Assembly: GCA_008632985.1 (NCBI GenBank) | Contig: QPGO01000064.1 | Location: 124,001-188,000, forward strand | DNA from: Psammoneis japonica | Lineage: Eukaryota | Direction: 5' to 3' | DNA length: 64,000 nucleotides | Shown here: positions 1,569 to 45,012 of the stretch, piece by piece | Numbering within the stretch: the first letter of the stretch is position 1 | How the letters are laid out: the number at the start of each line of letters is the position of its first letter | Program-made: the position numbers and the translations under genes | The notes under the pieces: model-generated | What the model saw: the letters and a program-made list of their open reading frames with translations, nothing else | Database searches by the model: none | Told to the model about the DNA's origin: nothing

Positions 1569-1811
1569 CTTGACCTTGACACATAGGAGTTAGAAGTAAA
1601 GGTCTTCTATAGGATAGCAGCTATTGCGAGACCACCTATAGCCTTAAGGGTGAAAAGGTTGCCGTTTGTCATCGTCGCGGCTATGCTATCTATCTACCGG
1701 TATCGCACAGCATTTTTCGAAATCCAATAGTACGGACAAACCACGCACGCCTTCTGTGGGAATCTGATGTGTTTCTACGTGTCGTACTTTGCCGTGTTGT
1801 AACTTCCCATC

Positions 1812-2247
1812 TGCAGTATGCCTCGCTACTGGACAACACGGCGAGACCGTGCATAAGCCTCTTGTACGTGGCAACGTAGTATTGTTAACACGTACCTGGG
1901 AAGCACGACCACAGGAGGGCGTGGCTCTAGGTCTTAGGCAATTCCAGAAGGATGCTAAGAGAGCATCCGGCCGTGTGAAGCACACTAGCCCGTCGTCTGG
2001 CCCACGATGGTAGCGTGATTCCACACGATGACATCACTCGTGCATGGCGCGTGATGGCTTGATTCGCACGATCCATAATGCGAACGCACGATCGATTTAA
2101 TACGATCCAAATGCGAACGAATAGGGATTTGGCAAGATTCCCTATTCGCACGATCCCATTTTCTCTACTCTAAACTAGCTCATAATTTTCACAACGACAA
2201 AGTCGTAACACATCTTCTTTTTCAGCGCCTGGCACACACATGGGGCA
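1812..2247 (+). repeat. 5' LTR (436 bp)
   Basis: Aligns end to end with 6605-7036 with one 4-bp indel. Retains about 23 TpA. Confidence 0.95.
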
Positions 2248-2308
2248 CAGTAATGTTGCTCCCGCATATTGTGCGAGGTAACGAAATCTACAGAAACGAA
2301 ACTACGAA

Positions 2309-5300
2309 ATGTTGGCAGGACCGACAAATCTTAAAACGACCATGAAGAAGCGGGTTGAGCCGCCGATTCCGTTCGCACGGCCGGAGAAGAAAGAGCTGCA
2401 GCAGGGCGAGCACCAGACGTTCAAGCTGCGTAACAACCCTGCTGATCCGGATGGTCCAACGCACGAGATGGGCATTCCGCACCTTTCTGCGGCTACATGC
2501 GAGACACTCCCAATCTTTCTGCGCAACGTGGATCGCGTGCACGAAGGACAAAACATCACGACCGGGCCAGCGAAATTTGCCCTCATGCGTGACCCACTGC
2601 AGGGCGATGCTCTGATGTCATTTGACAACGCCGCTGACAAGCAGGCATCCCAAACCAACGCTGCGTGCGCAGCATGCGTCGCGAAGCTAAAGGAGAGCAT
2701 CTTCCCACACAGGGCGGTGCCATTGCAGAAGCGCCATCTGAGGCACTTCATGCGCAAGCCCGCAGAGGTTTCTGTTCATGACTGCATCATGAGGGCTGTT
2801 GAAATTAACGGCTGCATCTCTCAGTTTCCACCCGTGATGGAGGATGGAGAAACACCGGCACCATTGCTTGATGACGAACTGTGCGACATGTTCGAGTGCG
2901 GTGTGCCGAGCGCATGGCAGAAGTTCATGACGCTACAGAATTTTGACCCGTTGGCGCATGCTGTCGCCAAATTTGCACAGTTCTGCGAGCGCACCGAGCA
3001 GGTTGAGCTTTCCGAAGGCAACCGCGACCATCATGCCAGGGTCCCACGCAAGCGGGGACGTAGAACGGACAATTCTGAGTCGTTGATCACGACCCAACCG
3101 AACACCCACATGAAGCGTGTCAAGACTGGACATTCCAGCAACGAAGGCAGCAAGCCCAACACAAAACCTCGGAATGAGGAAGATGTCAATGCTCTCATTG
3201 GATCGAAGGTCGAGGAGTTCTTTGCCAACGCTCAGAAAAAGCGCAAGGCACGCGAGGAGGAGCTCAGTCACTTCCGCGACCTCAACCCAAGTGACTCCGA
3301 AGACTCGGACACTTGCCGACACGACACAGGCAGTTTCAATGCATTGGACGAATGCACAAACAAACAACTGAATTGCCATCGTACACGTGTTGTGGGCCAA
3401 TCCCGCAAACGAGTTAAAAAGACTCATCTCACTCCAATCTTGTTTGCAGCTGTGAATGCCAAACATGGCAAGGGCAAGACTCAAACTGTCAAGGCACTGC
3501 TGGACAGTGGTGCCAGCAGTGCTCTGCTCGACAGTCGACACTGCAAACGTCTGCGAAGCCATTCAACGGCTGAAACAAACTGGGCTGCGGTGGCAGGCTC
3601 GTTTGGTGCGTCCAACGACTGTGCCGTTAAATTCCGGTTGCCAGAATTGTCCGAAACTGCAGAACTTGAGCATGTCGTCCATGCACACAACGGAAAGTTG
3701 GGCAAGTGCGATGTGATCATTGGACGCGACATTCTGGAGACACAAGGCATTGATGTTGTCTTCTCCAAACAGATGACAGAGTGGCCATCAGTCAATGGAG
3801 AAGCGCCAATGAGGCACGCAGATGCTGCGGTGGAAACCTCCTTCTATCTTCAAGATCCAGAAGCCTCATCTTTGGAAACCGACCGGATTTCGCGCATTTT
3901 GGACGCTGGGTGCACGCCGGCCTGCCTCGAGGACATGACGCGAGGGGCAATGGGACTTTCTGCAGTTCAACAAAACGACCTTTTGGCACTGTTGAAACGC
4001 CATGAGTCCTTGTTTGATGGGACATTGGGAGAATGGAAGGGAGAACCCTGCCATGTCCAACTCAAGGAGGGTGCAGAACCACACCACGCTTGTCCGCACA
4101 AAGCACCTCGTGTGTGCGAAGCTGCGCTGCGCAAAGAAGTAGAACGCCTGGTGCGTGTCGGTGTTCTCAAACGTGTCAACCAATCCCAATGGGCAGCTCC
4201 ATCATTTGTCATGCCGAAGAAAGATTTGACGGTGCGCTTCATCAATGACTTCAGAGAGCTGAACAAACGGATCAAGCGATTGCCTCATCCGATTCCTCAC
4301 ATCCAAGACATGCCACTCAAGCTCGAAGGCTTTATGTGGGCTGCATCGCTGGATTTAAACATGGGCTGTTGTCACATCCGATTGGACACTGATTGCAAGA
4401 AGCTCTGCACGCTCATCTTCCCGTGGGGCAAGCATGAGATGCAGGTGTTGCCCATGGGATTGTGCAATTCGCCAGACATTTTCCAAGAACGCATGTCAGG
4501 CTTGTTTGAAGATCTGTCGTTCGTTCAAACGCATTTAGATGACCTTCTCGTCGTGACGAAAGGCACCCACGAAGATCACCTCAACAAACTTGAAGAAGTT
4601 TTGTTGAGGGTCCAGAAAGCAGGACTAAAAGTTAACGCAACTAAGTCTCACTTCTGTCAAACCCAATTGGAATGCTTGGGTCATCTGGTCAACAGAGACG
4701 GAATGCGACCAACACCCAATAAAGTCGACGCCATTGAGCGAATCGCGACCCCAACCAACAAACGCGACCTGCGTTCATTTGTTGGCATGGTGAACTGCTG
4801 CCGCGACATGTGGATTGGACGTTCTGAAGTCTTGGCTCCGCTGACACGACTCGCAAGCGAGACTGTTAAGTGGGAGTGGACGTCCGTTGAAGACGAGGCG
4901 TTCGAAACCGTCAAACGGGCAATGTCGGATGATGTTTTGTTGTCACATCCTGATTTTAATGAACCCTTTGAGACACATGCCGATGCCTCTAAATGTCAAT
5001 TGGGAGCAGTTACATCCCAAGACAACAAACCCATCGCCTTTTACAGCAGAAAGCTCAACAGTGCGCAATTAAATTGTGCAACAACGGAGAGAGAATTGCT
5101 CGCCATTGTGGAGACGTTGAAAGAATTTCGAACGATTCTCCTTGGTCATCGCACAATCACATGTGCTGATCATAAAAATCTCACGTACAAAGCATTCAAT
5201 GCCGAGCGCGTTGTGCACTGGCGGTTGACATGTGAAGAATGCGGTCCCGAATTATGCCATGTTAAGGGCACCCATGACCCAGTCGCTGACGCTCTTAGTC

Positions 5301-6565
5301 GCCTTCGACTGGCACCCAGTTTGCCTTCCGAGGCTAATCCGGATGTAAAAGACACTCCATCGAGTCGTCCTTTGCATGAAGCTTTTAATGCAGACGCGCA
5401 AGATGAGCCATCTCTGCCTGTTGGCTTCAAGCGCATTCAAAAAGCACAACAAAAGGACAAGCGCCTGCTCTCAAGAGCTGAGGACTCGTCCGACTGCTCC
5501 ATTCGCGCGTGTCGTGGGGGAGGGTCATCACGACAGTCAATCTGTCATGAGGACAAAATCGCAGCACCACAGTCATTGCAGGTTCCGCTAACTGAATGGC
5601 ACCACTAGACACTGTGTCATCCAGGTGAGACACGTGCGGAAATGTCTGTTGCCCAGCACTTCTGTTGGCCCAGTGTGAGGTCTACGGTGCATTCTACGTG
5701 CGTTAAGTGCGATCGATGCCAGAAGACAAAACGCCGAACGCAGCGTCATGGGAAGCCACCAGAAAAGGTCGCAGAGATAATTCCATGGGAGACTCCATGC
5801 ATGGATGTGACAGGGCCACACAAAATTCAAAGACGCGGAAAGGACACTTTGCAATTGTGGGCAGTCACAATGATTGACCCAGCAACCGGGTGGTTCGAGA
5901 TTAAAGAAGTGTCTGCGAAACGCGCAGACGTCGCAGCAAACGTCGTAGAACAAACTTGGCTGTGCAGACATCCGTGGCCAACCCAGGTGGTTTGTGACCG
6001 TGGGACAGAATTTATGGCAGAATTCAGCCAAATGATTAAAAATGACTGTGGGATTTTGAAGAAACCCACAAGCAAACGGAATCCACAGGCAAATGCCATG
6101 GTGGAACATGCACACCAGACACTTGGCAACATGGTGCGCTCCTTTTCAGCACAGGATGTGGAACTGGACGAAGATGACCCATGGAGTGGCATCCTCTCCG
6201 CAACAGCCTTCGCTGTTGGAGCTGCGGAACACACGACCACGCGTGCAAGTCCCATGCAATTGGTCTTCGGACGCGATGCGGTTTTGTCCATTGCCCATCG
6301 TGCCAAGTGGAAGTGCGTGGAAACCAGAAAGCAGAAGCTTGTCCACTTAAACAACAAGCGTGAAAATCAGAAACGCAAGGAGTGTCAATGCACCGCAGGG
6401 CAATTGGAACTTGTCAAACAGGAACAATCCTCTAAATGCGGTTCTGACAGCTGTGCAGGACCCACCAGAGTTGTCCATGTGCATGACAACGGCACGTTGC
6501 GCATCCAGAACGGAGCGCTGACAGATGCGCACAATCTGCGGCAGATTGCACCCTGTCACCAGCAA
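2309..6565 (+). pseudogene. gag-pol polyprotein (protease, RT, RNase H, integrase), degenerate
   Basis: Protease LLDSGA; RT LPMGLCNSP and HLDD (from YLDD); RNase H ADAS, ERELLA, DHKNL; integrase HH..LCHPG/CxxC and D..D(RGTEF)..E. One in-frame TAG at 5606-5608 splits two same-frame ORFs. The probable original stop now reads CAA (6563-6565). Confidence 0.93.
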
Positions 6566-6604
6566 GACATCCTGTCACTTGACGGCCCTGATCATGGGGG
6601 AGTG

Positions 6605-7036
6605 TGCAGCATGCCTCGCTGCTGGACAACACGGCGAGACCGTGCACAAGCCTCTTGTGCGCGGCAACGTGGTGTTGTTAACACGCACCTGGGAAGCACG
6701 ACCACAGGAGGGCGTGGCTCCAGGTCTCAGGCAATTCCAGAAGGATGCCAAGAGAGCATCCGTGTGAAGCACACCAGCCCGTCGTCTGGCCCACGATGGC
6801 AGCGTGATTCCACACGATGACATCACTCGTGCATGGCGCGTGATGGCTTGATTCGCATGATCCACAATGCGAACGCACGATCGACCCAATGCAATCCAAA
6901 TGCGAACGAATGGGGATTTGGCAAGATTCCCCATTCGCACGATCCCATTTTCTCTGCTCTAAACTGGCTCACAATTTTCACAACGACAAAGTCGCAACAC
7001 ATCTTCTTTTTCAGCGCCTGGTGCATGCACAGGGCA
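6605..7036 (+). repeat. 3' LTR (432 bp)
   Basis: Copy of 1812-2247 with only 2 TpA left (GTTAAC, CTAAAC). Confidence 0.95.
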
Positions 7037-7040
7037 CATC

Positions 7041-8640
7041 CGATCATCACGTCGCGAGTGAGAATTCGAGACGCGACGACACCATTTTTTGAGACTGGAT
7101 GTTTGCTGCTCGAGACAATGCCGTTTGCAACTTCAGACAACACAGTGCCGCTCGAGATGACATTTGCTCTGGGGCCCTGCTCAAGATGACACCAATCAAG
7201 ACTCACGACCAGACGGTGCCACTCGGCATGTGCATGATGCATCACCACTTGAGACTGGACACTGCTGAGAGCACGATGCAGGACAGCGAGAACGACGTCC
7301 CAGTGACAAATGGGAACTGCCAGCTTTCACTCAGAATGGCTTGGCAATTGCCGCTAAAATTTTTGGCAATGAACTGGCATCACTTTGCATGGCTCAAATT
7401 GTTGACGCCAGAGAATGAAGTTCAGCCCTCCTTCGGTCGGATGTGTTGTTGCCCATTGTCAACTGAGTCAAGATGAAGAAAAAAAAATCCAATTTTTAAG
7501 TGCTGTCACTCCTTTGCCAGCTGGGGCAGCACCAGCCAACCTGCACTTCCAGTGCACCATTGAGTGTGGCAGAAGTGGATGCTCCTCATGTGGACAAACC
7601 GGGATGGGCGCTGCTGGAAGGTGACGTGCCACCTCAGCAGCCTTTTCTTTCCTTCAAATGTGGTTTGACCACAGCCACCCAGCTCAGAATCCCAGTGGTG
7701 GAATGGGTTGTGTGATCTTCAAGGGAACCCAAAAGAACCTCCCTGTGGTCCTTTGCCATGCATTCTTGGTGCTTGTCACAGATGACAGTGGCAAGCTCTG
7801 GCTGGGAAAAGATTTCCGCACATTGCCTTGTCATGCTGTTCCTGCAATTTCCACCATGAGGTCCAAACATGTGACCCAATCTGCGCTGCCCTGAGTCAAG
7901 ATGAGCCAGTTTGTTCACACGTGCAACCTGGAAATGTCAAACAGGGTTGGAGCTGAGCCCAGCTTTCTTCTGTCGTGCATTGTTTTTTTTGTGGCACAGT
8001 GAAGTGGGGCCAATGCAAACATGTGCCATGTGCTGCACAGCACATGCTCCTGTGGTGTGCTTTGATGAGCTGTAAAAAGGTTTGTGGCAGAGGCTCCAAA
8101 CAAGAAATGTTGTGCATGATTTTTGGTGCTGCACCCAGCACTTGGTTGAAAAGACAGCACAGCTCCAAAGTGCCAGCGAGTGGAGCACCAAAGTGAGAGG
8201 AGCTCCTTTGCCACTCTCACTTGCTCGCAGGCCTGTGCAAACAGCCTCCCACCCATCTCAAGCAACACCCTCAACTCTGTGACTGCAAGAATCATGTGTG
8301 AGTTCCAGCTGACAACTCTGTCCAGCAACAAGAGGTTGATGAGGCTCACAAAGGCATCCTCCGGGTTCAAATTGTCTTCCAACTCGCAGGTGCCACTTGC
8401 GGTGTCACTTGCGGAATGATTCAGCATCTTTTGCTTTCACTGAAGTGTGGACGTCCCACGATGTTCACACTGTGCGAGACAAGGCAAAGGAGATGTGTGC
8501 GTGCAAGTGCGAGACTCTAGCCAGCTGCTGGCAGGGTGTTCTGTCTTTTTTCGAGAATGGCTATTACTAGCCCACTCCCATAGCCTTTGTGGGGCGATGG
8601 ACGAGTGCGATGCCCACGCAGCGAGCATGTTGATCCATCA
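7041..8640. other. TpA-depleted relic block (core also CpG-depleted), origin unrecognised
   Basis: Only a few TpA between 7041 and about 8500. CA/TG-rich, with many overlapping Cys/His-rich ORFs. Confidence 0.8.
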
Positions 8641-8698: not shown

Positions 8699-10657
8699 CT
8701 AATCAGAATTTTTGTCTCGAAAGGCCGTGCTGTCCCACTCCATACCTGAGGTTAGATACTGAACGGCCAAATCCAATTTCTTGGAAGGCAGCTTTGTAAT
8801 AGACAATGGATCACCATATCGTTTACCACCACGAAACATGACAAAAGTAGGAACCGCCTTTACATCAAGAACTCGACCAAGTTCTTTTCCAGACTTTCCT
8901 GCCGTATTCGCCTTCGCAAAAAACACATTATCTTTTTCTTCCGTTGTCATTCTGGCCATGCGGGTGAAGGCTGGAGTCATGTATCTACAAGTGGTACAAT
9001 ATGATGCACTCATAAACATGACACAGTCTCTATGCGATGACAGAACCTCATGCTGCAAACCAGTAACATCTGTAATATCCATGACGAAGGGATTCTTCTG
9101 CGCGTTGCTGGGCAACGCCTCTTCTTCAATTTCATCGTATGCTTGCGTTTGTCGGTTGCGGTCAATGTTAGTCAAAGGCGGAGCTGAAACCATTCCATCT
9201 GCTTCTATATCATCCAAAACTGGCAGCCCATACCTCACGTTAGATCCGGACGAATCCCTTGGCCAAGATGCCAACTCCCAGAACTCTTGCAGAGACCAAG
9301 AACGAACGTTCTTGTTGTTTGAGAAAAGAATCTTTTTATCCAACAGGGTTTGTACCATGTCTGCCAAGTCCGAAGGAGGGATAATTTGTGTAGTGAACTT
9401 GGATGAAATGGAATTTTGTGTCGTTGAGATGTGTTTGTCGGCTTTTCCAGGGCCAAACAATACTCCGCTATCGCGAACAATTCTTTGAGATTCCGTCATT
9501 GTGCTAACATACCTGCGGTTTCAGAGGGTTAACAATTTTTGCTGAGCTGCTTCCAAGGATGAATAATATCCACTGTTTCTTGCTCATAAGACTGCTTGTT
9601 GGGGCACTCACCGATGACAATTGTGTTGGCTCTTTAGCAACGATACGACACCGCCACCTGATAATGTCATCATGTCATCCTCATCTTCATCGTCCGAAAG
9701 AAAGCCGTCGCCCCTTCGTTCATCCGACATGGTATCTACCAAGGCATCAAAGTCACCCAACGCGGCTGCAAATCCAATGTCTAACTCGCCCACAGCTGGC
9801 TTCATTACGTCAATATCACTATTCCGAAACCGAAGCTTGTCGTTTGTCGTCACGACTGCCACATTTGCCCCCAAGGCTGCCAAGGCCCTATGGCAAAATT
9901 GAGAAAATTTTCAAGCCCATGGCGTCAGCTTATTTTCAGAACAAAAATTACATGATTTGCTCAGCAAATACTGAAACTTACTCTGCAACAAAACGAGCGT
10001 AGTCGCTGCCACCCATTACAACAACCTGCGATGTAAGTAATTGGGAGAACAGAGTGTAAGATAAGATATCTAGCACTTCATGCGCCTTATGCCTGGAGGA
10101 TTCCCCGAGTTTACTATCAACGGCCTAAACAAACTCACTTTTCCCGATACAAAAGATTCTCCACCGCCACCGACTCCTTCCAAACGAGGCAATCCACAGT
10201 ACACACCAGAAAGTGATGCCATCATTGTGGATATCGCATCCTGATCAGTCACATCAGATGGAACAGATACCATTGAGTCCTTGTAAATGTGCACATCTTG
10301 ATCTAGTGACACAGTACTTTCAGAGTCTTTTGAGCCATTTGATAAGACTTGAATGCCCATGACGCGCTTCTGGGGTGCATCCTCAGTCGTCCCGGTTACC
10401 ACCGTCATGTATCCTGCGTTACTCGATAGACCGCCGCTCAACGAAGGTGCAGCCGGCAGGAATTTTTGTATCGACGTCCATTCTGCTCCATCGTAGATTG
10501 CAACTCGACTTGTCGATACTGCTTTCAACACTAAACTATTCTCCCGGATGCCTTGGAATAGTCTTCCAGAAGAACGGCTGGATTTGGTGGCTACGTATGC
10601 AAAGGCGAAGTATCGGTAAGAAAATATCCACCAAAACAAAATCCACTTCTCCAACAT
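8699..10657 (-). CDS. Probable plastid-targeted protein with a Rossmann/MDR-like middle region and C-terminal thioredoxin domain (4 exons)
   Basis: Signal peptide ending FAF-AY. GT-AG introns join approximately 10657-10139, 10026-9982, 9889-9612 and 9513-8699 (VVVMGGSDYARFVAE-GLAALGANV). Thioredoxin motifs ASYCTTC and AVPTF. Confidence 0.75.
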
Positions 10658-10891
10658 GGTCTATTGCGAGATTTCTTGATACCGTTACAAAATATGCCTT
10701 GTCGGACCCAAAGAACGATCCGCGAAACTAGTTGGTTTGTTGCAGTTGTTTCAATGGATTCCGTCGCGCCGCAAAAAGATTGGGCGGGAAAAACACCGTT
10801 GGTCGTGTGCGCCACCTTCTGTTGTCGTGGTAGACGGAACACGTAGGTTTCTACGTTACCAGCTGCTGGCGTCAGTCGTTACTTCAATTAG

Positions 10892-10898
10892 NNNNNNN
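10892..10898. other. Assembly gap
   Basis: Run of N. Confidence 1.
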
Positions 10899-11214
10899 GG
10901 GGGGGTACCGACGGAAGAAGAGGGGGGGAGAGGGGGAGCGAAGCGACCCCGTTGCTGCTGTAACAACAAGAGAGAAGGAAGGAAGAGAGGAGAAGAACGC
11001 AGCAATGGCGGAAGTGAGTGCAAGGTGCGTTGTGTTGTCGCATTTTCGTGGCGTTGAAGATGCAGATCATAAGCCTATCGCGCATAAAAAATTTCCACGG
11101 TTGATTTTATTTAGGCGCCACCGCCCCCCATTTCCCATCTTCCGTCTCGGCGCCAATTCGAGATGCAACCATGGGCTAGAATCAAAAGGCAAGTAATGAA
11201 TCTACATTTAGAGA

Positions 11215-14200
11215 CTACTTTGATGAACACTGTTCATCGTGTGGTACTCTTCCTCGAGCAGCCACCCCCAACAAGTTTGTTTTTGAAAGATGGAATTCCC
11301 TCGCTCGGCAACAGCAGTGTTTTTGGTTCAGATCCGACTGCAGATTCGGCGGCATCTGCAACAGCGGCAAAACTGTTGGCACACTATTCCAAAAGGGATT
11401 AACTTGAATCGGAGTACAATGTGGAACAGAATGTGGAACGGGGTGTGGTGCAATCGGCACTGGTGGCAGCTGTCTTGGTGGAACGACCTCTTGCAAATTC
11501 GAAGGTTTCACTTTTTTCGCGCGCGGCTCCTCAGACGGCGGCAGTTGTTGAGACTTGGATTTTCTTTTGCATGGATTCTCCACACTTGCCATTGGGTTAG
11601 AACGGGTTGAACATGGGTTTCTTGTGCCACACTTGTTGCACATGCATCTGTCAGATTTTTTTCCGGATGCTGCTGCTGCTGCGCCGGTTGCAGCACTTCT
11701 CGTTTCGAGCTGCTCTCTCACGCGTTCCAATTGCTCCGGGTGAGCTGAAAAATGCCGCTCACCATTGTCTTCTTTTAGTTCTTCGACATTCCCATGCACA
11801 GGATGGGGTGCTCCTGCTTTCTCTGCCAGCTTGTTGATGCAGTCGAGCTTGCTGTGGTTGAGAAAAGTAGGAACGCCTCGAAAGGCGTGCGGAATCTTGG
11901 CGCGCTCGTCAGCCGTCAGTTCGTCTGTTCGGACACGCTCTTGCATTGACATGTTGCATTCACACGTTCCTGCAAGGCACAGTGCATCTATCAGAGAGGA
12001 TCTTGAACCAGTGTTTCCAAAATGCTTGACGACATGGTGATGCTTTTCAAGCTTTGATTCCGTGCCAGTGGTTGTTACAAACGTGTCGAGCTTACACTTG
12101 GACCATTTTGAAGGCTTGACAACTCTGTACAAGTCTTCATGTGGCAGCGGCTCATTGAGTCCACGAGCCGACAATTTTGCGTTTTCAACCGCTGGCTTTG
12201 TATCTTCCGTAAAAAGCGGCTTCCCAGAGTCTGGGTCATGCCGTCCGCCAGCTTCTGCCGCGCCGGGAGACGCAGAGCACTTGTGCCGATCGAACCAAGA
12301 TTCCAGATGCTTGTTCCGTGTTTCGAGTGGGTAAGTCCACCTTCGAATGTGCTTCTTGTAGTTGTTCCACTTCTTGCTGTTCTTGATTTCCTCAATTTCT
12401 TCCGTCGTGTTCTTCTTCCCGCCAAGTTTCCCAAAGATGAGAGCATCAACTACCTTCGCCTCGTCGGATTCATCGTTGCACCGGACGCAATCCTTTAAAT
12501 CACGAACCGCACGACAGCAATCAATGTGAGTGCCTCGTAAAGTCCGAATGATGCGGTTTGTCCAGTGCCAAAGACCAAGCCTGCATGCAATGTCCTGACC
12601 AAAAATTTGCTTCCAAAACTCTTCCTTGTCAGGCCAAGTGTCAGAGCAATGCACTTGAGGTTTGACATTTGGACGCCTCGCAAACTGTTCAGCTGCATGC
12701 GCACAGTCTTTTGTTTCCAATGTTGGCACTGCTGCAGCTGTGCCAATCTCTCCAGTCTCTGTGGCCATGGTGAAGAGTCCCTTGCCGTTGTTGTCTTTGT
12801 AATTCTTTAACTGGTCAAAAGTGTGGTCGGACGCAACACTGATGCGACAACCAATGGATTGCATTTCCCTCGTGTGCCGAATGTTGTCGCTCACTCCGGT
12901 CTCGGTAAGGTTTGATTGCCGGACAAAATCACACACATCTCTCATATTTTGTCCAGTGGGTCCATGGCGACCGACCCAATCCTCGAACACCGACAAACCC
13001 GTCGCATTCCCTCCGCCAGCATCTTTCAACAAAGAACAGTAATTTTCCTCTTTGTCAACAAAAGTCTCGCCTCTTTGTTGATGAAGAAAAGCAGACATGT
13101 CATCACCATTGCCACACTTCTTCACAGCATGGTCCACATGTCGTGACGTTTCGAGCGACAGGTGAAAAGACGGATTCGCGGCTGCGCATCGTAGATCCAC
13201 GGGACAGCTTGTTTGCAGAGGCCTCGGCAGCTTCTTAATTAGCTTGGGATTGTTCGCCTTGCATTTACAGCCACATTTGTTGCACTTATAGAGCATTGAG
13301 CTTGTCCAATCAGCAGTGCCACTGACTTTCAACACTGGAGTCGGTGAACACTCCTTCTTGATGTCAAACTGCTGATGCATCATCTCGCCGTCATCACATC
13401 CATCGACACATGGCAATGATGTGCCAATGAAGTTCAATTCCCAGCAGAGCAAATGGATTGTAACGCCTTCAATCTCACTGTAGAGGTTGTCGGGAGTTTT
13501 GGTTGTGTCATCACGTGGCACTGCAAATGACATGGCACCGGAAGGAAAATTCTTCTGATGCCATTTAAGTTTCTTGGCATTCACCTCTCCGCCCATGATC
13601 TCATTCGAGTCCGCATGAAACCGAGATGGACACAAGTCCAGAAGGTACAAAATCAAAGCCTGAATGGGTGCAGGACAAGGAATCTTCTTTTTTTTACATG
13701 TTTCAATTCGTTTCCGAATCTCTCTCTTGAGCACCTCTCTAGAGAGAGGATCTTCTTCAACAACATTGCCAGAATGCTCCATGCTATTCGACGTGACGGT
13801 GCTGATGGTAGCAGCAGTAGCGTTGGCAGCAGCGTTGGCAGTAGCGTTGGCAGTGGCAGTCGGCGACGAGACGGTCGTTGCAGATGGCTTGTTGTTTTTT
13901 GAAGCCCTGGTGCCATTGTGGAACAGTGCCTCCACACCTTCCTTAGTTGGGGCCTGATAACCCGGTAGCTTTTTTGCGTTCTTTCTTGCGTTACTAGCAA
14001 TGAAGCGATGGACAGCCGCGTTTCGCTCGGCACTCATGTTCTTTCCACAGCAGATGGATTTTGGGCAGCTCGTGTCATGACCCTTTTTGTAGGAGGGCCC
14101 TTGTTTGCACCTTTTGCACTCAACAACCTTTTCTTGAGTAGTATGACTGTTTGGTAGAGTCAGAATTTGCGATTCTGCCTCCGCCGCCGGTGATGTTGTA

Positions 14201-14337
14201 AACCGAGGCGCATTTTTCCCCGACAACTTAGCGATTCCAGAAAAAGCTCGCTCCTTTGCTTTTTTCGTGGCTGCCTTTCGAGTCTGAGACTGAATGCCCA
14301 TGGTGCTGGGAAGCTTATGGGAGAAATACTTCTCCAT
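11215..14337 (-). mobile_element. Putative DNA transposase, DUF6729-associated/RNase H-like type, partially hypermutated
   Basis: Intronless 1040-aa ORF with CxxC clusters and the motif series SDHTF, TETGEI, (YY>HC)SDTWP, RLGLWHWTNR, GTESKLEKHH. From memory this resembles DUF6729-containing transposase-like proteins. TpA-poor. No TIRs found. Confidence 0.6.
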
Positions 14338-14907
14338 TCTGCTGCAATTCCTTCTCTCAGAACTCTCTTGTACAGGTCGGTACTGATGATGAGTGAGATG
14401 AAAAAAGACGGGAGGAGTTTGAATTTTGTGTGTGGTGTCTTTGTCAGAGCGCCAGTGCTCAGACTGTGGCGCATCCGTCTGAGATGGATGAACCGAGGTG
14501 GCTGTGTCTGTGTTGCATTGATCGTTAAGTAATGATGATGTGTATTCTTTCAGAAAGCCCTAAGTATTGCAACGTGTATTCTTAGAATGAAGCGTTCTGA
14601 TTGGTCCAATCTTCCATCGGTAGGGGGCTTTCGTCGAGCAGCAGCGTCAGTCTCAACAGCCAACTCAATAATTCCGGAAGATGATTTGCTCTGGACGGTA
14701 CGCCAGAAAAGTTAAGGTAAGATATTCGTAAGGCTTGGACTACGATGGTGCAGGTGTTTTCTATTATTTTAGACTCTAGTTTTAGAACTACTTTGTTTCT
14801 CATGACAAACCTGCTGTACCTAGAGGAGTGCTCGTGGTCATGTTTGTTGCAAATTGATACGCTCCTGCGACTACTTTTTCACAGTCCAGGAAAATCTTTC
14901 TACTTTC

Positions 14908-16087
14908 TTAATCATCATCTAAGAATGACAAGACATCATTGCGCCATAATCTCGGTTGCTCCATCGGCACAGCATGACCGGCATTCTCAAAGAAGTTCAT
15001 CTGCTGGTCATCCCATCCCAGGAAACCAAGGAGAGCTTCGGCCTCGATTGTGGGAGCCATGGAATCTAGCTCTCCCACAACCAATCTTCCACATACGTTA
15101 TTCCGTCTTTTTATTCTTTCCGCCATACTTGTCGTACTCCATGGATCCGAGGACGAGGTTGGAGATGTTTGTTCCAACAAGTTTCGTAAGCCTCTTGCTG
15201 TATTGGAATCTTGAATGTGTCGCACCCACATGGCTAGTCGTTCTTGGTTGGCGTGTAAAAAGTTTGGACTATAAGTAGACATCAATGCCGACCATGCAAA
15301 ACCTTGAGTATTCTCATGCCTCAACAAGTCTCTCCAGGATTCCATGGCGACTTGTCCGAGGGGCGATCGCTCTGCCGCAACTCCTGTCAGGTGCAATTTG
15401 TCGATATTAATTGAAGAGCAGCTTGAAGCCGCTGCCATGGCGACCCTACCACCCAACGAAAACCCGACAATGTCGACTGAATCGCGAGTTGGAAAAACCT
15501 CCTGGATTGTATCACGAAGTCGTTCAGCTTGAGCAGGCAAGGTAATGTTTTCATAGAGCTGAGAAAGTGTATCGACAAAACAAACAGAAAGGCCGAGGAA
15601 AAATGAGATAATCTTGCTTGTTGTGCTTGTCCTCACCAATGTTCAGTTCAGACTATCGTACCAAGTCGATATCGTTGGTATCTGGCGGCTTGGGTCCTTG
15701 CCCTGCGCACTCATAAATTAGCAAATCTCGGTTCCTCGAGAGACCAGATACATGATGCTCCCATGATGCAATTGTTTGAGCCATTCCCCCCAACAGTACG
15801 ATAGGATTCTTTTTGGAAGATGCCTCGCTTGATGGATGGAATCGCACTCGTTGATTACCTACATACACTGGAGAGCCAGGTGAGATTTGCGGTTTCTGCG
15901 ATAGCGCGTCACAGCACGGCGTAATGAGAAAGTAGGTGAAAGCAAACAGACATGCAAGAAGAATTTGGATTTCAATAAGACTCGTCCTGCCCTTGGAATG
16001 AAATGCATGTGAGCTCATGCCTCTGGCCGTGGTATCTGCTGTCATCGTTGGAAAGCTCGTGCTCCTGACTATTTGACGCATTTGCAT
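14908..16087 (-). CDS. Alpha/beta hydrolase (2 exons)
   Basis: IVLLGGM oxyanion region, GFSLGG nucleophile elbow, GELD acid and AGH His. GT-AG intron at about 15661-15560. Hydrophobic N-terminal segment. Confidence 0.85.
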
Positions 16088-16407
16088 TGAGACATGCTAT
16101 CCTATCTCTCGCCCCAAATTATTGGGGCTTGGCCATTTTTGAGACAAAAGACACAAAAGAAAGAAGGCGTTGTTTTTGTTGGGGTGATGGGTTGAAAAAC
16201 AAAAAATGAGTGCGATTTCCGCCAAAATTTCAAATTTGGCATTTTTTCTTTTCCTTCCCTGAGAAAAAAAAGCAACGGATGGACACCCACGCTTAACGGA
16301 ACCTCGCGGAGGTTCACTCTTATCTCTTCTTTTCGTTCGCTTTTTTCGTTATGATGATGCTCATGGTGAATTTCAGAATCGTTGTCGTTTTTGTTGTGAG
16401 CTTGAGC

Positions 16408-17650
16408 ATGTCGGATGAAACTCTCTATTCGGGTGCTCAGCAACGCATTCTTGGAATCATTCCCTGCATTTCGGCACCGCCGTCTCTGCTTGGCTCGTTG
16501 ACAATTCTGTTTGTCATGTTCAGGGAAAAAAAGTTTGGACCACTCTGATGCATCATGATTGGCTTGTCCTCCATGGATGTTCTCAATGCCTTTGGTCTCA
16601 TCATGTTTGGGTCTTGGGCCATTCTGGCAGAGAGCGCATTGGCCCACAATGCAAGTGGAAACACTGCCACGTGTTCTGCATTGGAGCTCGTTCTTCACCT
16701 CTTGGGAGGGAACTTTGTGCAAACAGCATGCCTGTGTGTTCACTTTCTCTTGTCAATTTGGTGTGAAGTCAGTGATGAGGTCATTGCACGCTGTTTTGAA
16801 CTGTGCTTAGATTCACTCTGTGTCATTTGGGTTCTTGGAACGGGCATTGGTGGAGCTGTTTTGCGGGGCTCATGAACCCTCTGCCAATTCCATCAGGATG
16901 GCGTTGGCTCAAAGACCACCCGCCCAGCTGCTCTGGCAATGACACTGTGCCTTGTTTGAGGGGTGAGAACTTCAAGCTTCCTGATCAGATTGCAATGGGT
17001 GCTGCCTGCCTGTCGTCTTTTGTCATGGTTTGTGTTTGCACGGTGCTCATCTTTCTCAAAGTCCGATCAACAGAATGAAGGATGTGTTCTTGCAGTCACC
17101 CGGCAATGCAACACATGCAGCTGACAAGAGAGGCTGGAAAGAAAGCATTGTCTTACATTTGCTGCTTTTTAGCCAGCTGCCTCTTTCTCTTGATCATTGC
17201 CATGATGGACATTGAGGAGTCGGCGAAGAATGCAAAGTTTGCTTTCCCATTGCAGTGGTGACCAAAACTCTTGCCCCTCTTCAAGGATTCTCCAATTCCC
17301 TCATCTTTGTCATGCCAAGATGGAAGGAGCTGTTTTGTGAGGGTGGCGGAGCTTTGCATTTCATGTCACATCAAAAGCGCACAAAAGATGCAGCTGAGAT
17401 GACATTGCAGAATTGTGAGGACCCCACTGGCCCAGTTGTGAGAGATTGGAAAGATTCACAAGAGGGTGAGGCAACAGTGGGAATGACACGTGGACAAATG
17501 TTGGATGCCAAGGCAACCAAAACAAGGTTGCAGAGTTGTGAGGACCCCCCTGAATCAGCTGTGAGAGTTGAAAGGCCACAAAAAGGCAACACAGAACCAA
17601 GTGCACTGTGTGATGTTGTGCACAGATCTGTTGAGCAACCCAATGGCTGA
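16408..17650 (+). pseudogene. 7-TM GPCR-like gene (diatom expanded family), decayed
   Basis: Reads ISAPPSLLGSLTIL, IGLSSMD, ASGNTATCSA, NP..GW.W..(Y>H)PPSC..CLRG, LAPLQGFSNSLIF across stops and frameshifts. Tyr nearly absent. Confidence 0.75.
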
Positions 17651-20600
17651 TGGTCCACCTCCTTTGATTGAGTCCAGGTGATGAGGACAGATGCAGACTT
17701 TTGCTGGCACCAGCTCTGGGTGATGCATGTGGGGGCGGGCAATTTGTCAATGGCCCATTTTGCACTCAGCACATTCAACTTTTTCAATTTTTGATTTCAT
17801 GGCTGACAGCCACGACTCATTGGGAAGGTGTCTTTTTCCACATGAAAAATGTGTGCACACACAACTTCTTTCATTTTTTGGATCTTCCATTTGTTCTCTC
17901 TGCTCAAGCAGTGGTCATTTTTGCTGAAGTCAAATTGCACTCAACTGCCCCACTCACCAGTGTGTCAATTTCTGCTGAGCGTGCCAAAAACATCTCTTCT
18001 TTGCCCATTTCCCTGCTCATCACTTTGCACCCCAGCTGGCTGCCTTGCAGATTGTGCTGAGCCATGTCCTGGAAAAGAAAGTTTCCCAGAGTTGGCAATC
18101 AACACAAGTCAGGATGCCCTGCCAGCCTGGTCAGAAACCGTGCTGTTGCCAGAAGACAGAATGACCAACCAAATCTCAGCAAAGGGTGCCACTGGGAAAG
18201 GACAAGCAGCAAAGAAGAGCGGCGCTCTTGCATCCACCAGCAGCCTCAGCTCTTCCAACACCAAGCCCTGCACAGCAAGGGTGGCTGTCAACAAGATTGA
18301 GCTGCCTTGCACTTTTGGTCAGTTGGTGCACACCACACATGGCAGGAAGTTGCAGCCCCTCCTGGCACACCTTGTGAAGAAACCACCAGAAAGCCACACT
18401 TCATTGGCACTTGTCCTGTTGCCTGTGACAAGCTTTGTTGAGTCTGGCCAAGACAAAGTGCCAACCAAAAAGGCAGCTTTTTTGAAGCATTTGTGCCAGG
18501 TCTCTCAAAAGTCAAGCCCTCTTTCTTAACCTCCTCTCTTTGAGCCAGTGCTTTGGGTGTCCAGCAGCACCTCTGCAAAAGCCACCGGCACTCTTTTCAT
18601 TGCTTGCTCTTGCTTCCAGCACCACCAGCCTCAGTTGCTGCAGCACACCATGGGCTGTGCACAGCAAGGCTGTGCTGGTGTTGACAAGACCAAGTCTGTG
18701 TCAACAAGCTTGGCTGATTTGGCGCTGAAGTGCTGAAAGCTTTGGCATTTCCAAGTGAGCGCACACTTTGTCAAAAATCCACTGGCCACACTTTGTTGAT
18801 GCCACCTGTTGCCTGTGCAAGGCAGGCTTTGCTGGGTCCAACCACCAGGGCAAAGCACCAGTTAAAACAAAAGCTCTCAACAAAGCCTGGCCACCGGTCC
18901 ATCTCAGAGGTCATCCCTGACCTTTGTGCTTGTTGCCTTGGCACTCAAGATGCAGCTGCCACAGCTGCTTTGTGTCCAAGGGTGTTGTTGGAGTGCAAAC
19001 CTTCCAAATGCTTCTCATGTGCAAAGTGCAAAGCCCAAACCACAAAAGGTCTCAAGCTCTTGCAGAGTCGGTGGTGTGGAGGGCAAATCTGCTTCTGAGC
19101 TTGGTTGGGGGCACCCAAAAGGTGGCATGCATCAAAACAAGTCACATGGCCACTTGGGTTGCAAAGCAGGCTGAGCTGTTTGCCATGGCTTTTGTGAGAC
19201 CTTTGATGCCCCCAAGTGCAGCAGCTGCTGCATTGCTGGCTGACACTTTCTCAGAGATGCTGCAACAAGCAAGTGTGCCAAACCCACCAGCCAAAGCTGC
19301 ATGGGTGCAAGATGCCCCCCAAGCGAGTGCCCAAAAGTTGGCAACAACTTTTCTGCACAGCAGCGGGCCAACCAAGCAAAAAGCACAGAGACACCAGCTC
19401 ATGAGGAAACTCTTCTCCCAAAGGCAAGAAGAGCAGAGCAGCCCTGCTGCACACTTTCCTTGCTTGCCAGCTGGAGCAGCAGCAGCAGCCCTGCAACACA
19501 CTTTCTCACTTGCCAGATGGCTTGCCTCCTCTGCTTTGTTTTGCAACACTCACTTTGGTTTTGCTGCAAGGACAAAGAGAAGTTGCAGTTTCTCTCTCAA
19601 AGCTTTTTGCTCAAGAATGAGCACACATCAGATTGAGCATGATGAGGGTTGTGCGCCCCCAGCTGAAGCCTGGATTGAGTCAAGCAACAAGCTGCTCTTC
19701 TTCCATCAACTTTTTTGCTGCAGAAGAGGAGGCTCATTTTGATGGGCAAGCTTGGCTGACAGCAGCAAAACCTTGAGGAGTTGAGACAATCTCAAGCTCT
19801 TCATTGTCCCACTCAGTTTTCTGAGACCAGAGCTCACCTTGCTGAGGTTGCAGCTTTGCTCACAGCTTGAGCTTTGGCTTTTGCTCTTCCATTCATGCTG
19901 AGACCAACGAAACAGATCAAATGGAGCCCCGACAAAAAAAAGGCAAACAGCCACAGAGTGCTTTGGCACTGGGGCAACACTTGCACACTGTCCACAGCTG
20001 AAGTCAACAAAGAATTTTGCACTCTGGCACAGCTGACAAATGCCCTCTGGAGGCTGTGGCAGGGATCAATGTTGCATGGTGTGACCTTCCTTGTTGGCAC
20101 ACCGCCATTCTCTGGCAGCTCCAGCCACAAGCAACAAGGCCTCCAACCCCTCTCTCAACATTTGGCACATCCTGGTGCATCAAACAGGTCAAGCCAGCAA
20201 CCAAAGATGATGCACAGATGAGCAGCACTGGTGTTTCCAGGGCAAAACACCAAGTGCAACAGATTGACCACACACAGGAGTTGTGCAGCATGGTCCTGTG
20301 ACCACACAGAAAAGCTGGCTGATGTGCCCAAACTGTGAGCCAGCACTGAGTTGAACATCTCACCATGTGATCCTCAGTCTGTGGGCTCCCAAGTTGGCTG
20401 TCACATTTCCTGTTGTGATGAAATGAAGTCCTCTCTGCATGAGGCAGCTGAGAAATGAGCATTTTGGCCATCAGCTGGAACAACAAATGCCCCAAAAAAG
20501 ACAAGCTCTGGCAGATGAAGACAAAAGTGTCTGGTGCTGAAAACTGCACCAAAAATTGCACTTGATGAGTTGTGTGTTTCACCTTGAGCTGGAGCCGACC

Positions 20601-21200
20601 AGCTGGCAAAAGAAAAAATCTCGAGGGGTGCCGAGTTGTGCTGTTTTGTCGGGGTGTTGCTTGCTTTGCACACACACGGACACAGGGGGACTCTGGCACA
20701 GCACAAAATGTGGCAGTGCTCTTTGTCTTGTGTGCAGCCTGGGCACTTGGCATTGGCCACCTCTGTGCACAACATGGGATGGCAGGGGGGACAGCTTTGT
20801 GGCTTCTTCTGTGACAAGAACATGTACCACAACATGTGTCACAATGTGAGAGAGCAGCTGTAGCTGGCTCTCCCTTCTTCTTGGAAACAAGCATTGGCGC
20901 TGGTGAGCCACCTCTGGATGATCATCAATCTTGGATGTCGGCGGTCGTTTTGTGGAGTGCAACATGGTGCAGTAAACGACAAACAGGTCGTGCGTTCTTC
21001 CATTGTCCGTTCATCGTTCTTCGTGGCGCGGCGGCCGCGACACGGCCGCGAGAAGCGTTTGTAGGCGAGAGGAAACAACACATCCCCGAAACCTAACCGA
21101 CGGACAAGGTAACAACAGGATCGTGTGGGATCAACTTCAATGCACACGTAGCTTCTACAGCGTGTCTGGTACTCGGGTTGGATCGCGAGAAAAAACTGCA
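17650..21200. other. Heavily TpA- and CpG-depleted relic block
   Basis: About 3 kb with only a few TpA and few CpG. Fragmentary ORFs of unrecognised origin. Confidence 0.85.
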
Positions 21201-21245
21201 ACATCACACGCCAATCTTGTTGTTGTGTGACGATAATACGAGACA

Positions 21246-22121
21246 ATGAAGTTCCTTGTTGCGGCTCTTTTGGCTGGTTCGGCGGCTTCCTTTGCACCGA
21301 ACCATGCTTCCTCTTCCTATGTTACTCCGTTGCAAGAAACCAAGGCTGATTTGGAAGCTCTTGCCGGAAAATTGAACCCGGTAGTCAAGTTCTTTGACCC
21401 TCTTGGTTTGTCCGAGGCCAACTTGTGGAACAGCCCTGAGGACGCCACCATTGGTTTCTTGAGAGAGTCTGAGATCAAGCATGGACGAATTGCCATGTTT
21501 GCGTTTGTCGGATACATTGTCCACGCCAACGGTATTACTTGGCCATGGCCCATGCAATTGGATGGTACTCCGTTCCCCCAGGTTGACAGCGCCCCCGAGG
21601 CTTGGGACGCCATTCCTGATATTGCTAAGCTCCAGATCTTTGCTTTTGTTGGATTCCTTGAATACGTAAGTACAAAAAGGGTGCGATTGACTTGCTTGGT
21701 CTCTGCAGCGAGATTTCTCGACTATTGAATGGACTGGATGAATGCCTTAATCTGTCTCACCTTCGTCATTTTTCTACTATGGTATCTGTGTTATTCAGTG
21801 GCGCGAGTCTGCCTGTGATAAGCACTACATGCTTGGTGGAACCCCCGGTGATTTCCCTGACTTCAACGACAAGTACATTCCGGGCGGTGCTTTGAATCTT
21901 TTGACCCCTTCAAGTTCTCCAAGAACAGGTCGGAGGAACAGAAGGCTAATGGACTTATCAAGGAGATCAACAACGGACGCCTTGCTATGCTCGGCATCTT
22001 TGGTTTCCTCTGCGAAGCCAAGATCCCCGGGTCTGTCCCAGCTCTTTCGGGTGTCATCCCTCCCTATGACGGTGAATTCATGGCTCCCCTCTCCAAGTCC
22101 ATCCTTATGACTTTGCCTTAA
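21246..22121 (+). CDS. Fucoxanthin-chlorophyll light-harvesting protein (LHC; possibly Lhcq subfamily)
   Basis: Signal peptide plus ASFAP plastid motif, FFDPLGL, ESEIKHGRIAM and KEINNGRLAM. Intron about 21666-21799. One-base frameshift in a T-run near 21900. Confidence 0.93.
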
Positions 22122-22727
22122 GCTATAACATGGGTTTGTCTGAGAAAAATTTAGATCGAAGGAATAGTTATTTCTTAGAATCATCTTGCATCTTTTCACA
22201 TACACCTTTCGAGCTGCTACCGAGTTACGAACGCAAAGCCAAGCCGTTGTGATGCTCTAATTATCATGCTGCACAGTTTTGTGTGCTATTTGAGCTACGC
22301 AACACCGCAACCTTCACGACTCTCACTTGCTTTGCTGTTGATTCCTTCATCTACATAGAGTCTCCTTCATTTCCTTGTCCCTGTTGCCTCATCGGGGTGT
22401 CGCTGTTTCTACTTTCTACCGGAACAGTAGGGTTCCTAGCCTTATGCTGTGATCGGGAATTTGTTTTGATTCACATATAATATACAATAGCGTCACGTAT
22501 ATATATACGTTAGTAGCAGGTAGCATGGTGGATAAAGGGGTTAAGACATTTTCAATGTCATTTATTTCAAACATATTCGTTTTCATACATATGTAATACT
22601 CAGGATGTCCGCGATGCCTCGACACAAAACATTATTTTTTTTGGAATTTTTTCGTCTCAAAAGAACACAACCAAGCAATAACACATCACCTGTACGGTAC
22701 GAGCAGTGCTGACGAGATTACCAAGCA

Positions 22728-25386: not shown

Positions 25387-26077
25387 TTCGACTCGACCAA
25401 GACTTTCGTTTGTCGCCATTTGCACATTTATACATGTACAAGCACCTGCGACAGGAGAGCGGTGCAACCAAGTGAAGACAACGGCAGTGCCTGAGCGACA
25501 CTTCTAAACGCAGGTTTGTCCCGCCCCCAACACTTTGGCACTGCATGAGTTTGTTTTCATCCACCGCCTCTGGCTAGCTCTGCCGTGACAAAATCAAAAC
25601 TTTATTACTTTAAGTCAGAGGCTCAAGTTTGCGCTCTAGGGAGAGGACACCGCCACGAGCTTTGTGCATTGTCGCAAGAATGAGACAATGTGGTCTTGCT
25701 CTTCTGGATTCGTTCAAGCTCACAGTGGGCTTTACTCTAGTTTAGTGCTTTGGATTCAGATGGAATACTATTGGAGGAAAAAGACCGCCATCAAACATGA
25801 AACTTTGCGCATTACTTCTATCACTTCTTGTAGTCGTCAATCATCGTTCTTTTGTTGGTCCGCTGTGGGAAACGAAACGAAAATGTGGGGAGGAAAGACG
25901 ATATGTTTCATATCCAATGTTTTTACATCAAATGATGGGACGTTATCTTTGCAAAGTCGCGCCACTTGATTTGAATCTTAGCTTGCTTTCAACGGTGTTG
26001 AAGCGGCAAAGCTCAAATAAGCGCCGACACACCAGAGAAGTGATATTCATTCCTGTGAACGTTAAGTTACAGCCACC

Positions 26078-27934: not shown

Positions 27935-28541
27935 TGCACGTGGAGCTCCCTGAGCGAAACAAAACGAATGAGGAGTGTTTCAACCACGTCATGTAAGTGC
28001 ACATTTCTGTATCTCTCGACAAATCTCTCCGACAGTAACGACTTGTACGTACCATGTTTGTTATCGCAAAGTTATCAAGAGGCTTACGGTAATCAAACGT
28101 TTGTCAAAGTGTGCTCAATGCGACAACGGCATGCAAAGTCTTTTTGTGGGGAAGCGAACGGTAGGTGCGAAAAACAAAAACGGGATGACCGTCTATCAAT
28201 GACGGGATTGAGTGATCATAACCCATTTTGTTTTTATGTATTCGCCTACGAATACCTCACGCACGATTCAACGCATGACAGTTAATATATTCTAAAATAT
28301 TAATATCTAACATTATATTCAACGGAAATTATCATTGACCTTCTGTATATGTAGATTAAATCGCCGAAACTGCCGCTCACAAAATGCTTTTTTCCTCGTC
28401 CCCCTCGCCATGTTGGGAGTTGAGAGTTGGGAGCGTCCTCGTCCGTTGCACTTGACGCCCCTTTTTCAAACCAAAAGGTTCCTGTCTAGGCGTGACATAC
28501 ACCAAGCTTCATCACAGAACGTGTAAAAGGAAGTTTCAATC

Positions 28542-44900: not shown

Positions 44901-45012
44901 TTTCAAGAGAAAAAAAAGATCTGCGCACATGGCGGCCCAAGCAGCTTTCTCTCAGATGGAAAGAAGAGACAGCAGCAGCAACTGCAATGATGACAATGAC
45001 GTCAAAACAAAT

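Follow-up and report, generated by a model that had tools for sequence, protein, structure and literature searches.

What process could remove almost every tyrosine from a retrotransposon and leave its reading frame nearly intact? This question is raised by a 64,000-nucleotide stretch of Psammoneis japonica DNA (contig QPGO01000064.1, positions 124,001 to 188,000; hereafter the window), in which an initial annotation had described a retrotransposon at 2309-6565 as disabled by Tyr to Cys or His missense changes while its open reading frame (ORF) stayed open. Judged by its sequence, the element is a Ty3/gypsy-type long terminal repeat (LTR) retrotransposon at 1812-7038, a decayed member of its class and not an active one. 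Nearly every TA step of this element was changed to CA or TG after insertion. We consider it probable that the element was struck, following integration, by a process that acts on DNA, converts TpA to CpA or TpG and is bounded by a chromosomal domain.

Organization of the element

Two direct repeats on the + strand delimit the element: a 5' LTR of 438 bases (1812-2249) and a 3' LTR of 434 bases (6605-7038), which align over 438 columns with 92% identity. Both start with TGCAG and end with CACA. A candidate target-site duplication abuts the LTR ends (left copy TCCCATC at 1805-1811, + strand), with 6 of 7 bases matching 7039-7045. It is suggestive only: the five bases on either side are mismatched, and a length of seven is unusual for Ty3/gypsy elements.

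A polyprotein frame of 1,511 residues occupies 2282-6817 on the + strand; 2309 is its first ATG, and 6565 is the last base of a CAA codon discussed below. The section with gag, protease (PR), reverse transcriptase (RT) and ribonuclease H (RNase H) (2282-5605, 1108 aa) contains 4 Tyr. The integrase section of the same frame (5609-6817, 403 aa), which runs into the 3' LTR, contains none. Pfam matches above the cut-offs were obtained for RVT_1 (aa 645-801, 4214-4684; 1.3e-19), for RT_RNaseH_2 and RT_RNaseH (aa 866-983, 4877-5230; 2.3e-27 and 1.8e-23) and for Integrase_H2C2 (5612-5737; 2e-06). The integrase core rve (5798-6085; 4.1e-06) fell below its cut-off, at 27.4 against 32.6 bits, and gag-asp_proteas (aa 401-486, 3482-3739; 0.0066) was weak, at 17.5 bits against a cut-off of 28.2. 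All of these matches lie on the + strand. A purine-rich run directly 5' of the 3' LTR (6593-6604, + strand) is, by its position, a putative polypurine tract.

The element resembles other Ty3/gypsy elements in its TG...CA LTRs, in the order PR, RT, RNase H, integrase, with integrase after RT, and in its best match among solved structures, which was Ty3 RT (PDB 4ol8/7q5b; E 2e-47). It differs from them in reading HLDD for YxDD, in having lost 22 of 24 conserved Tyr and in carrying an in-frame TAG. An autonomous active member requires YxDD, which is not intact here. Within the 64-kb window there was no other copy: blastn of 1600-7200 returned the LTR pair only.

Loss of tyrosine and direction of change

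Among the 1,511 residues of 2282-6817 there were 4 Tyr, 67 His and 56 Cys (0.26%, 4.4% and 3.7%). Three of the four Tyr lie inside 2309-6565, in agreement with the earlier estimate of about 3 in roughly 1400 residues. A search over 5.8 billion proteins returned 1,555 relatives at E ≤ 1e-20, and comparisons were made with the best 120 (52-59% identical). These contained 2.84-4.56% Tyr (mean 3.75%), none of them less than 1.5%, and on average 2.7% His and 1.2% Cys. At the 24 columns with Tyr in at least 70% of the 120 relatives (consensus-Tyr columns), the element showed Cys at 11, His at 10, Trp at 1 and Tyr at 2, a tally that upholds the proposed missense from Tyr to Cys or His. Every His or Cys codon at these columns was CAY or TGY.

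The catalytic Tyr of the YxDD motif, in a column that is 99% Tyr in the 120 relatives and reads YLDD in Ty3, is encoded here by CAT (4532-4534, + strand), giving HLDD. Alignment of Ty3 RT with the element paired GYHQI with GCCHI, GKYE with GKHE, YLDD with HLDD, LGY with LGH, NYYR with NCCR and KNY with LNC, and all motif changes that had been listed for this frame were present. The nearest relative fragment (P0394, 80% identical) retains GYYHI and GKYE. Loss of the catalytic and other conserved Tyr suggests that the element is disabled. In public collections the best identity was 59% for full-length proteins, 64-67% for matches of 91-291 aa and 80% for a short fragment; among the relatives retrieved from public protein collections there was no copy of the element's own family. 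The initial annotation had named the same His and Cys residues in active relatives as the finding that would count against it. Distant relatives keep Tyr, but copies of the element's own family, described below, are not uniformly TA at the sites where the element has CA or TG.

The observed-to-expected ratio (obs/exp) in 2282-6820 was 0.19 for TA (48 TA), 1.40 for CA, 1.57 for TG and 0.90 for CG. TA obs/exp was 0.50-1.18 in 17 related metagenome loci, whose identity over long matches does not exceed 51%; not one of them was TA-poor. At 111 conserved columns the element departed from the consensus of its relatives, and a single change of TA to CA or TG accounted for 55 of these departures. As controls on the same columns, CpG decay fitted 5 and other reversions of C>T or G>A fitted 4. 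The TA-explained changes were Tyr>Cys (11), Thr>Ala (11), Tyr>His (10), Ile>Thr (5), Ile>Val (4), Ile>Met (3), Leu>Pro (3) and a few others, comprising 34 A>G and 21 T>C on the coding strand. Because the coding columns of the 120 relatives set the polarity, the direction is fixed as TA to CA or TG. On the + strand the ratio of T>C to A>G was 13:8 in the LTR comparison described below, 10:11 in Tyr codons and, when every inferred coding change is counted, 21:34.

Timing and rate from the LTR pair

When an element integrates, its two LTRs are identical, having been copied from a single template, and differences between them therefore postdate integration. Of the 438 aligned columns, 32 differed by substitution and 5 by an indel. 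In 21 cases TA in the 5' LTR was matched by CA (13) or TG (8) in the 3' LTR, and the reverse was never seen (two-sided sign test, about 1e-6). At three further sites, within 2233-2242, the LTRs carried different products, CA against TG, as independent hits on an ancestral TA in each LTR would give; these were the only three TA sites converted in the 5' LTR. Altogether 27 of the 32 substitutions fell on TA sites, the others being 3 CpG transitions and 2 T>C changes beside a TA site. The largely spared 5' LTR retained 23 TA (TA obs/exp 0.87, GC 0.51), whereas the hypermutated 3' LTR retained 2, in GTTAAC and TCTAAA (TA obs/exp 0.09, GC 0.55). Conversion took place after integration, at the level of DNA and on both strands.

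Approximately 24 of 26 TA sites (about 92%) were lost from the 3' LTR. Between the LTRs, about 3 of 34 CpG sites (about 9%) and 2 of about 320 other sites (about 0.6%) differed. Simple arithmetic on these counts puts the rate at TA roughly 50-fold above CpG decay and 800-fold above background. Overall LTR divergence was about 7%, and about 1% outside TA sites. The element is thus young, since its LTRs are about 99% alike outside TA sites, and dating by LTR divergence will badly overestimate ages unless TA sites are masked.

At one of the converted sites, TTTA in the 5' LTR (2096-2098) corresponds to CCCA in the 3' LTR (6885-6887), with two T>C changes just 5' of the converted TA. Other copies of the family read T,T at this spot, and both changes are private to the copy under study. 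The two T>C changes at 6885-6886 may represent occasional spill-over of the process onto a neighbouring T.

Extent of the TA-poor domain

TA depletion did not coincide with the element. The TA positions define a TA-poor domain at 2333-8517 that comprises the element interior, the 3' LTR and the right flank. Counts of TA per 200 bases were 7-17 up to 2300, 0-5 over 2300-8500 and 9-11 further to the right. TA returns sharply at the right edge (8518-8562), and the left edge is a mosaic across 2233-2340. Survival within the domain was patchy, with 29 surviving TA in 4536-6037.

The right flank (7039-8517) extends the domain 1.5 kb beyond the 3' LTR, with a TA obs/exp of 0.03 and a CG obs/exp of 0.42 over the whole flank. 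A scarcity of CpG from about 7300 onwards gives the flank the look of an older silent block beside which the element inserted. In contigs of one DNA run, 7216-8600 stood at single-copy depth (about 60): the element is multi-copy, yet this TA-poor flank is not. The unit struck is a chromosomal domain and not the element. On the left, the start of a P2X-receptor-like gene (249-1589, - strand) faces the spared 5' LTR, and open chromatin at the promoter of this gene may set the boundary. A single bin in the right flank (7450-7683) had a summed depth of 1,332 against about 60, which suggests a short embedded repeat.

The domain is one of five TA-poor blocks, which together cover 21.5 kb, about a third, of the 64-kb window. 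The other four are described in the last section.

Effect on stop codons and reading frames

No sense codon becomes a stop when TA changes to CA or TG, because TGA can arise only from TAA; TAA and TAG are turned into Gln or Trp codons. The initial annotation had proposed that the process cannot create TAA or TAG, and this holds in a stronger form: it makes no stop from any sense codon and erases existing ones. Counted over six frames, TAA occurred at 2.15 per 1000 triplets in the TA-poor blocks and 9.28 outside, TAG at 0.98 and 8.93, and TGA at 22.7 and 19.2. ORFs are therefore inflated, since TAA and TAG are removed in all six frames.

The ORF had been said to stay open, and this was true of the long frame 2282-6817 except for one in-frame TAG (5606-5608, + strand), the sole stop within the polyprotein frame. 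Relatives read through this position, in a variable column (T/E/N/L). One nonsense codon per 4.5 kb is what ordinary mutation would be expected to produce. At the end of pol, relatives stop at aligned aa 1427 in 76 of 120 cases and at aa 1425-1430 in 103 of 120, and the next codon of the element is CAA (6563-6565, + strand). Beyond this codon the frame runs into the LTR until it meets a TGA. Alignment to the 120 relatives indicates that the natural pol stop was probably erased here by a change of TAA to CAA. Gene callers will report long, Tyr-free, His- and Cys-rich 'proteins' from dead elements of this kind.

Sequence context of conversion

The influence of flanking bases was assessed with a survival proxy, in which the density per unit length of the 87 TA surviving within TA-poor blocks was set against that of the 1,729 TA elsewhere. 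Counts are small, and TA density outside the blocks reflects the ancestral state only crudely. Survival was highest in TTAA (0.55), followed by CTAA (0.27), GTAA (0.125), CTAG (0.10), CTAC (0.08), ATAA (0.065), GTAC (0.044) and ATAG (0.03), and was 0 in ATAT and ATAC. TGA and TCA were the least enriched products. TTAA and CTAA are also the contexts of the two TA surviving in the 3' LTR, and in the LTR pair TA followed by A went to CA in 6 of 6 cases. The target A seems to be disfavoured when A follows or TT precedes, a preference that offers a concrete test for candidate enzymes.

Tyr-free relatives in public collections

Six RT relatives without Tyr were found among 509 proteins (P0135, P0173, P0184, P0417, P0439 and P0461). 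Three were among the best 150 cluster representatives and three among 120 short matches; none was among 120 full-length or 120 mid-length matches. P0135, P0173 and P0184 came from ENA, JGI and NCBI, and P0135 lies on an 18-kb contig. All have His or Cys at consensus-Tyr columns, in combinations that differ from one another and from the element; at the Tyr position of YxDD the six read H, C, C, H, C and H. As far as their residues indicate, these six RT fragments are independent examples of the same footprint.

Alternative explanations

Other copies of the family were studied in contigs of one DNA run aligned to the element (5,962 pieces), using the best-supported 40 of 263 variable places. Transitions accounted for 254 of the 263 (A>G 59, T>C 56, C>T 72, G>A 67). 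Among the best-supported 40, 16 were CpG losses private to the copy under study, which shows that CpG decay also acts on the element, and two pairs were exchanges of CA for TG.

Several observations weigh against conversion of this copy after integration. The element belongs to a high-copy family, with a summed depth of 9,000-22,000 in the interior and 28,000-38,000 in the LTRs against about 60 in the flanks. Only 2 of the best-supported 40 of 263 places plainly had CA or TG in the window and TA in the family (4669, and 6100 or 3361 read singly). The dominant variants are thus not simply TA-rich, and the other copies seem to be TA-poor too, either independently or by descent. One of the 21 asymmetric LTR sites, 2102, has G in about 98% of the family depth against A in the 5' LTR; it may be a private G>A change of opposite polarity and not an ancestral TA. 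The Tyr-free relatives matched the element's choice of His or Cys at 22 of 33 comparable columns, where 50% would be expected of a context-free process, and this above-chance agreement may reflect the flanking-base preference. Finally, A>G and T>C are indistinguishable at a palindromic TpA.

These family data could mean that the TA-poor, Tyr-free state was inherited, a mutated copy having later multiplied by DNA duplication or by mobilisation in trans through the proteins of an intact element, so that most changes would predate integration. The high copy number, and the lack of TA in dominant variants at most CA or TG sites of the element, favour this explanation. In addition, 1,356 of the 5,962 pieces were at least 99% like the copy under study, although most pieces are short and such likeness weighs little. 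Five contigs at 6885-6888 read T,T at 6885-6886 with no difference listed at 6887, and so seem to share the CA. Against inheritance, the contrast of 23 TA in the 5' LTR with 2 in the 3' LTR means that at least the LTR changes arose after integration. An inherited master also predicts about 20 near-fixed differences from the family in one LTR, and such a difference was seen only at 2102. The almost even spread of the 254 transition places over four types agrees with copies that variously carry CA, TG or TA. The lack of some 20 near-fixed differences in either LTR, together with the near-equal transition classes, favours copies that were converted independently and to different extents, and we regard inheritance of the mutated state as unlikely. 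Changes made before integration, whether in the RNA genome by ADAR-like A-to-I editing or in cDNA during reverse transcription, are far less probable still. ADAR usually prefers U upstream of the edited A, as stated in the main text of a 2026 preprint on Bigelowiella natans (bioRxiv 10.64898/2026.01.13.699255), and APOBECs edit retroelement cDNA in vertebrates according to an excerpt of a second source (PMC4866542). Such editing would leave the LTRs alike, but they differ at 21 TA sites; it would mark one strand, but T>C and A>G are both common on the + strand. It also does not fit a TA-poor domain that reaches 1.5 kb into single-copy flank. LTR asymmetry and strand symmetry thus contradict editing of RNA or cDNA.

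Modified bases can produce systematic base-calling errors on some platforms, and modified TpA in silent DNA might have been miscalled, A as G and T as C. Independent contigs of the DNA run, which may come from the source sample, nevertheless matched 1600-1841, 7008-7520 and 7496-8600 with 0, 1 and 0 differences, and three of the Tyr-free relatives came from three different archives. The comparable mutations in B. natans, described below, were called from Illumina reads, as the main text of that preprint reports (bioRxiv 10.64898/2026.01.13.699255). We give a reading artefact very little credence. The least credible alternative reverses the polarity: a process of CpA>TpA like repeat-induced point mutation (RIP) would have enriched TA in the 5' LTR, leaving the 3' LTR as the original state. 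Site 2102, with G in about 98% of the family depth and A in the 5' LTR, fits this scheme. The 120 relatives, however, set the polarity of the coding region as TA to CA or TG, and two opposed processes would be needed side by side. In addition, TA obs/exp in unmutated relatives spans 0.50-1.18, which includes the value of the 5' LTR (0.87) but not that of the 3' LTR (0.09).

Proposed mechanism

For the conversion of TpA after integration, which we favour, the following course of events is suggested. Since TpA is self-complementary, one chemical event on either strand would give A>G or, equivalently, T>C, and a converted site would no longer be a target. The chemistry would most likely be deamination of adenine to hypoxanthine in DNA, with a TadA/ADAT2-like enzyme as the candidate. 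In the natural tRNA substrate of the TadA/ADAT2 family, U33 precedes A34. Targeting may follow silent chromatin: the domain 2333-8517 would be affected, single-copy flank included, and the 5' LTR facing the start of a host gene spared. In coding sequence the predicted outcome is Tyr (TAY) to His (CAY) or Cys (TGY), plus Thr>Ala, Ile>Thr, Val or Met, and Leu>Pro. The end product would be a long gene-like frame, catalytically ruined and with TAA and TAG removed. A role in defence against mobile DNA appears plausible.

Comparison with known systems

In the literature searched, outside subscription journals, a TpA-directed process was described only in the preprint on B. natans, and none was described for diatoms. 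In mutation-accumulation lines of B. natans, 231 of 302 nuclear single-nucleotide mutations lay in two integrated viral regions, and nearly all of these changed A to G or T to C within TpA, at about 1000-fold the background rate (bioRxiv 10.64898/2026.01.13.699255). The same text reports 124 clusters poor in TpA and 324 TpA-poor predicted coding sequences among which RT and DDE domains are over-represented, and its authors propose an ADAT2-like adenine deaminase as a candidate (bioRxiv 10.64898/2026.01.13.699255).

As far as the main text of the preprint describes it, hypermutation in B. natans resembles that of the element in its A>G and T>C changes at TpA, in its local domains and in a rate orders of magnitude above background. 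Both yield blocks poor in TpA and rich in CpA and TpG, and in both single-copy DNA is struck too. There are also differences from what is reported there. B. natans is a chlorarachniophyte with integrated viral targets, whereas here the host is diatom-like, with a fucoxanthin-type light-harvesting complex (LHC) gene, and the target is a high-copy LTR retrotransposon. Saturation is greater in the element (TA obs/exp 0.03-0.2, against 0.45 in the B. natans nucleocytoplasmic large DNA virus (NCLDV) region), as is density: TA-poor blocks take up about a third of the window, and the whole B. natans genome has 124 clusters. Older blocks here are CpG-poor as well, unlike those described for B. natans. 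De novo events were seen in cultured lines of B. natans, whereas the present footprint is read from sequence alone. The main text of the preprint makes no mention of LTR pairs, TTAA, flanking bases or diatoms. The element thus bears the same footprint in a new host lineage and a new target class, and does not represent a new process. What is new relative to that text is the LTR-based timing and the flanking-base preference: the footprint is now seen on a classical LTR retrotransposon in a second algal lineage, and the LTR pair provides an internal clock.

RIP of ascomycete fungi acts on duplicated sequence, mainly as CpA>TpA (C>T/G>A). It resembles the present process as a host process with one transition class, a dinucleotide context and composition-skewed blocks in mobile DNA. 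RIP creates stops by changing CpA to TpA, whereas the process acting on the element destroys TpA and cannot create them. The RIP signature of CpA>TpA with raised TpA was not found here: the LTR pair reads 21 to 0 in the reverse direction, and coding changes run from Tyr to His or Cys. In the present case single-copy flank was struck along with the multi-copy element.

Decay of methylated CpG also acts on a self-complementary dinucleotide, gives the same products TpG and CpA on either strand and proceeds domain-wise in silent DNA. Its target is CpG and it lowers GC content; the TpA process raises GC content and is far faster (CG obs/exp 0.90 against TA 0.19 in the element). APOBEC3 and ADAR in animals likewise produce clustered, deaminase-type transitions that inactivate retroelements. 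They act on RNA or single-stranded cDNA, before integration and strand-specifically, in contrast to the post-integration changes on both strands seen here.

We propose, tentatively and with less than even confidence, that a TpA-specific DNA-editing defence is common to distant branches of the stramenopile-alveolate-rhizarian (SAR) group, represented by a diatom-like stramenopile and the rhizarian B. natans. Such a defence would be directed at domains of silent chromatin and not at repeats as such, would work more than tenfold faster than 5-methylcytosine decay and would leave a footprint of near-immunity at TTAA, complete conversion of ATAT and ATAC and reduced conversion where another A follows the target. 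If this is true, algal genomes would contain a second, mechanistically distinct counterpart of RIP that produces long stop-free pseudo-genes. The findings suggest a widespread algal genome defence, chemically opposite to RIP and to CpG decay.

Other TA-poor blocks and neighbouring genes

Of the four further TA-poor blocks, those at 16301-21060, 42941-45060 and 45701-51440 had a TA obs/exp of 0.03-0.05 and a CpG obs/exp of 0.16-0.32, the last two being separated by a gap of N at about 45.06-45.70 kb. The block at 22721-25420 had largely retained its CpG (0.72). The older, CpG-poor blocks (CG obs/exp 0.16-0.32) were mostly without recognisable domains, and Pfam searches of 82 further ORFs in the TA-poor blocks other than 2333-8517 gave no matches. 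Long overlapping frames on both strands fill 16301-21060 and 42941-51440, where the only Pfam domain is XPG_I at 43285-43911; these regions resemble old foreign or mobile DNA in which conversion has run to completion. Within the block at 22721-25420, a Tyr-free frame of 545 aa (23749-25383) matched Peptidase_M64 (3.6e-08) and may represent a hypermutated gene that did not originate in the host.

Milder TA depletion was seen at 11.4-12.9 kb. A 1114-aa frame on the - strand (11218-14559) had a TA obs/exp of 0.23-0.33, with 1.2% Tyr, 4.3% His and 4.2% Cys, and no Pfam match. Its nearest Atlas clusters were DUF6729 and Mutator-like transposases (score 0.98), which we take as a lead only. The frame resembles a DNA transposon that has gone part of the way through the same loss of TA.

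Another sharp boundary beside a host gene occurs at 21061-21750, where about 180 bases separate a TA-poor block from a normal-looking LHC gene (21237-21725). The best match of this gene was to fucoxanthin chlorophyll a/c proteins of PSI-FCPI complexes (E 4e-48), and its nearest Atlas clusters are commonest in Bacillariophyta. An adjacent direct repeat of about 320-350 bases (54485-54802 and 54801-55148, 73.5% identity) was observed in or next to a short-chain dehydrogenase-like frame.

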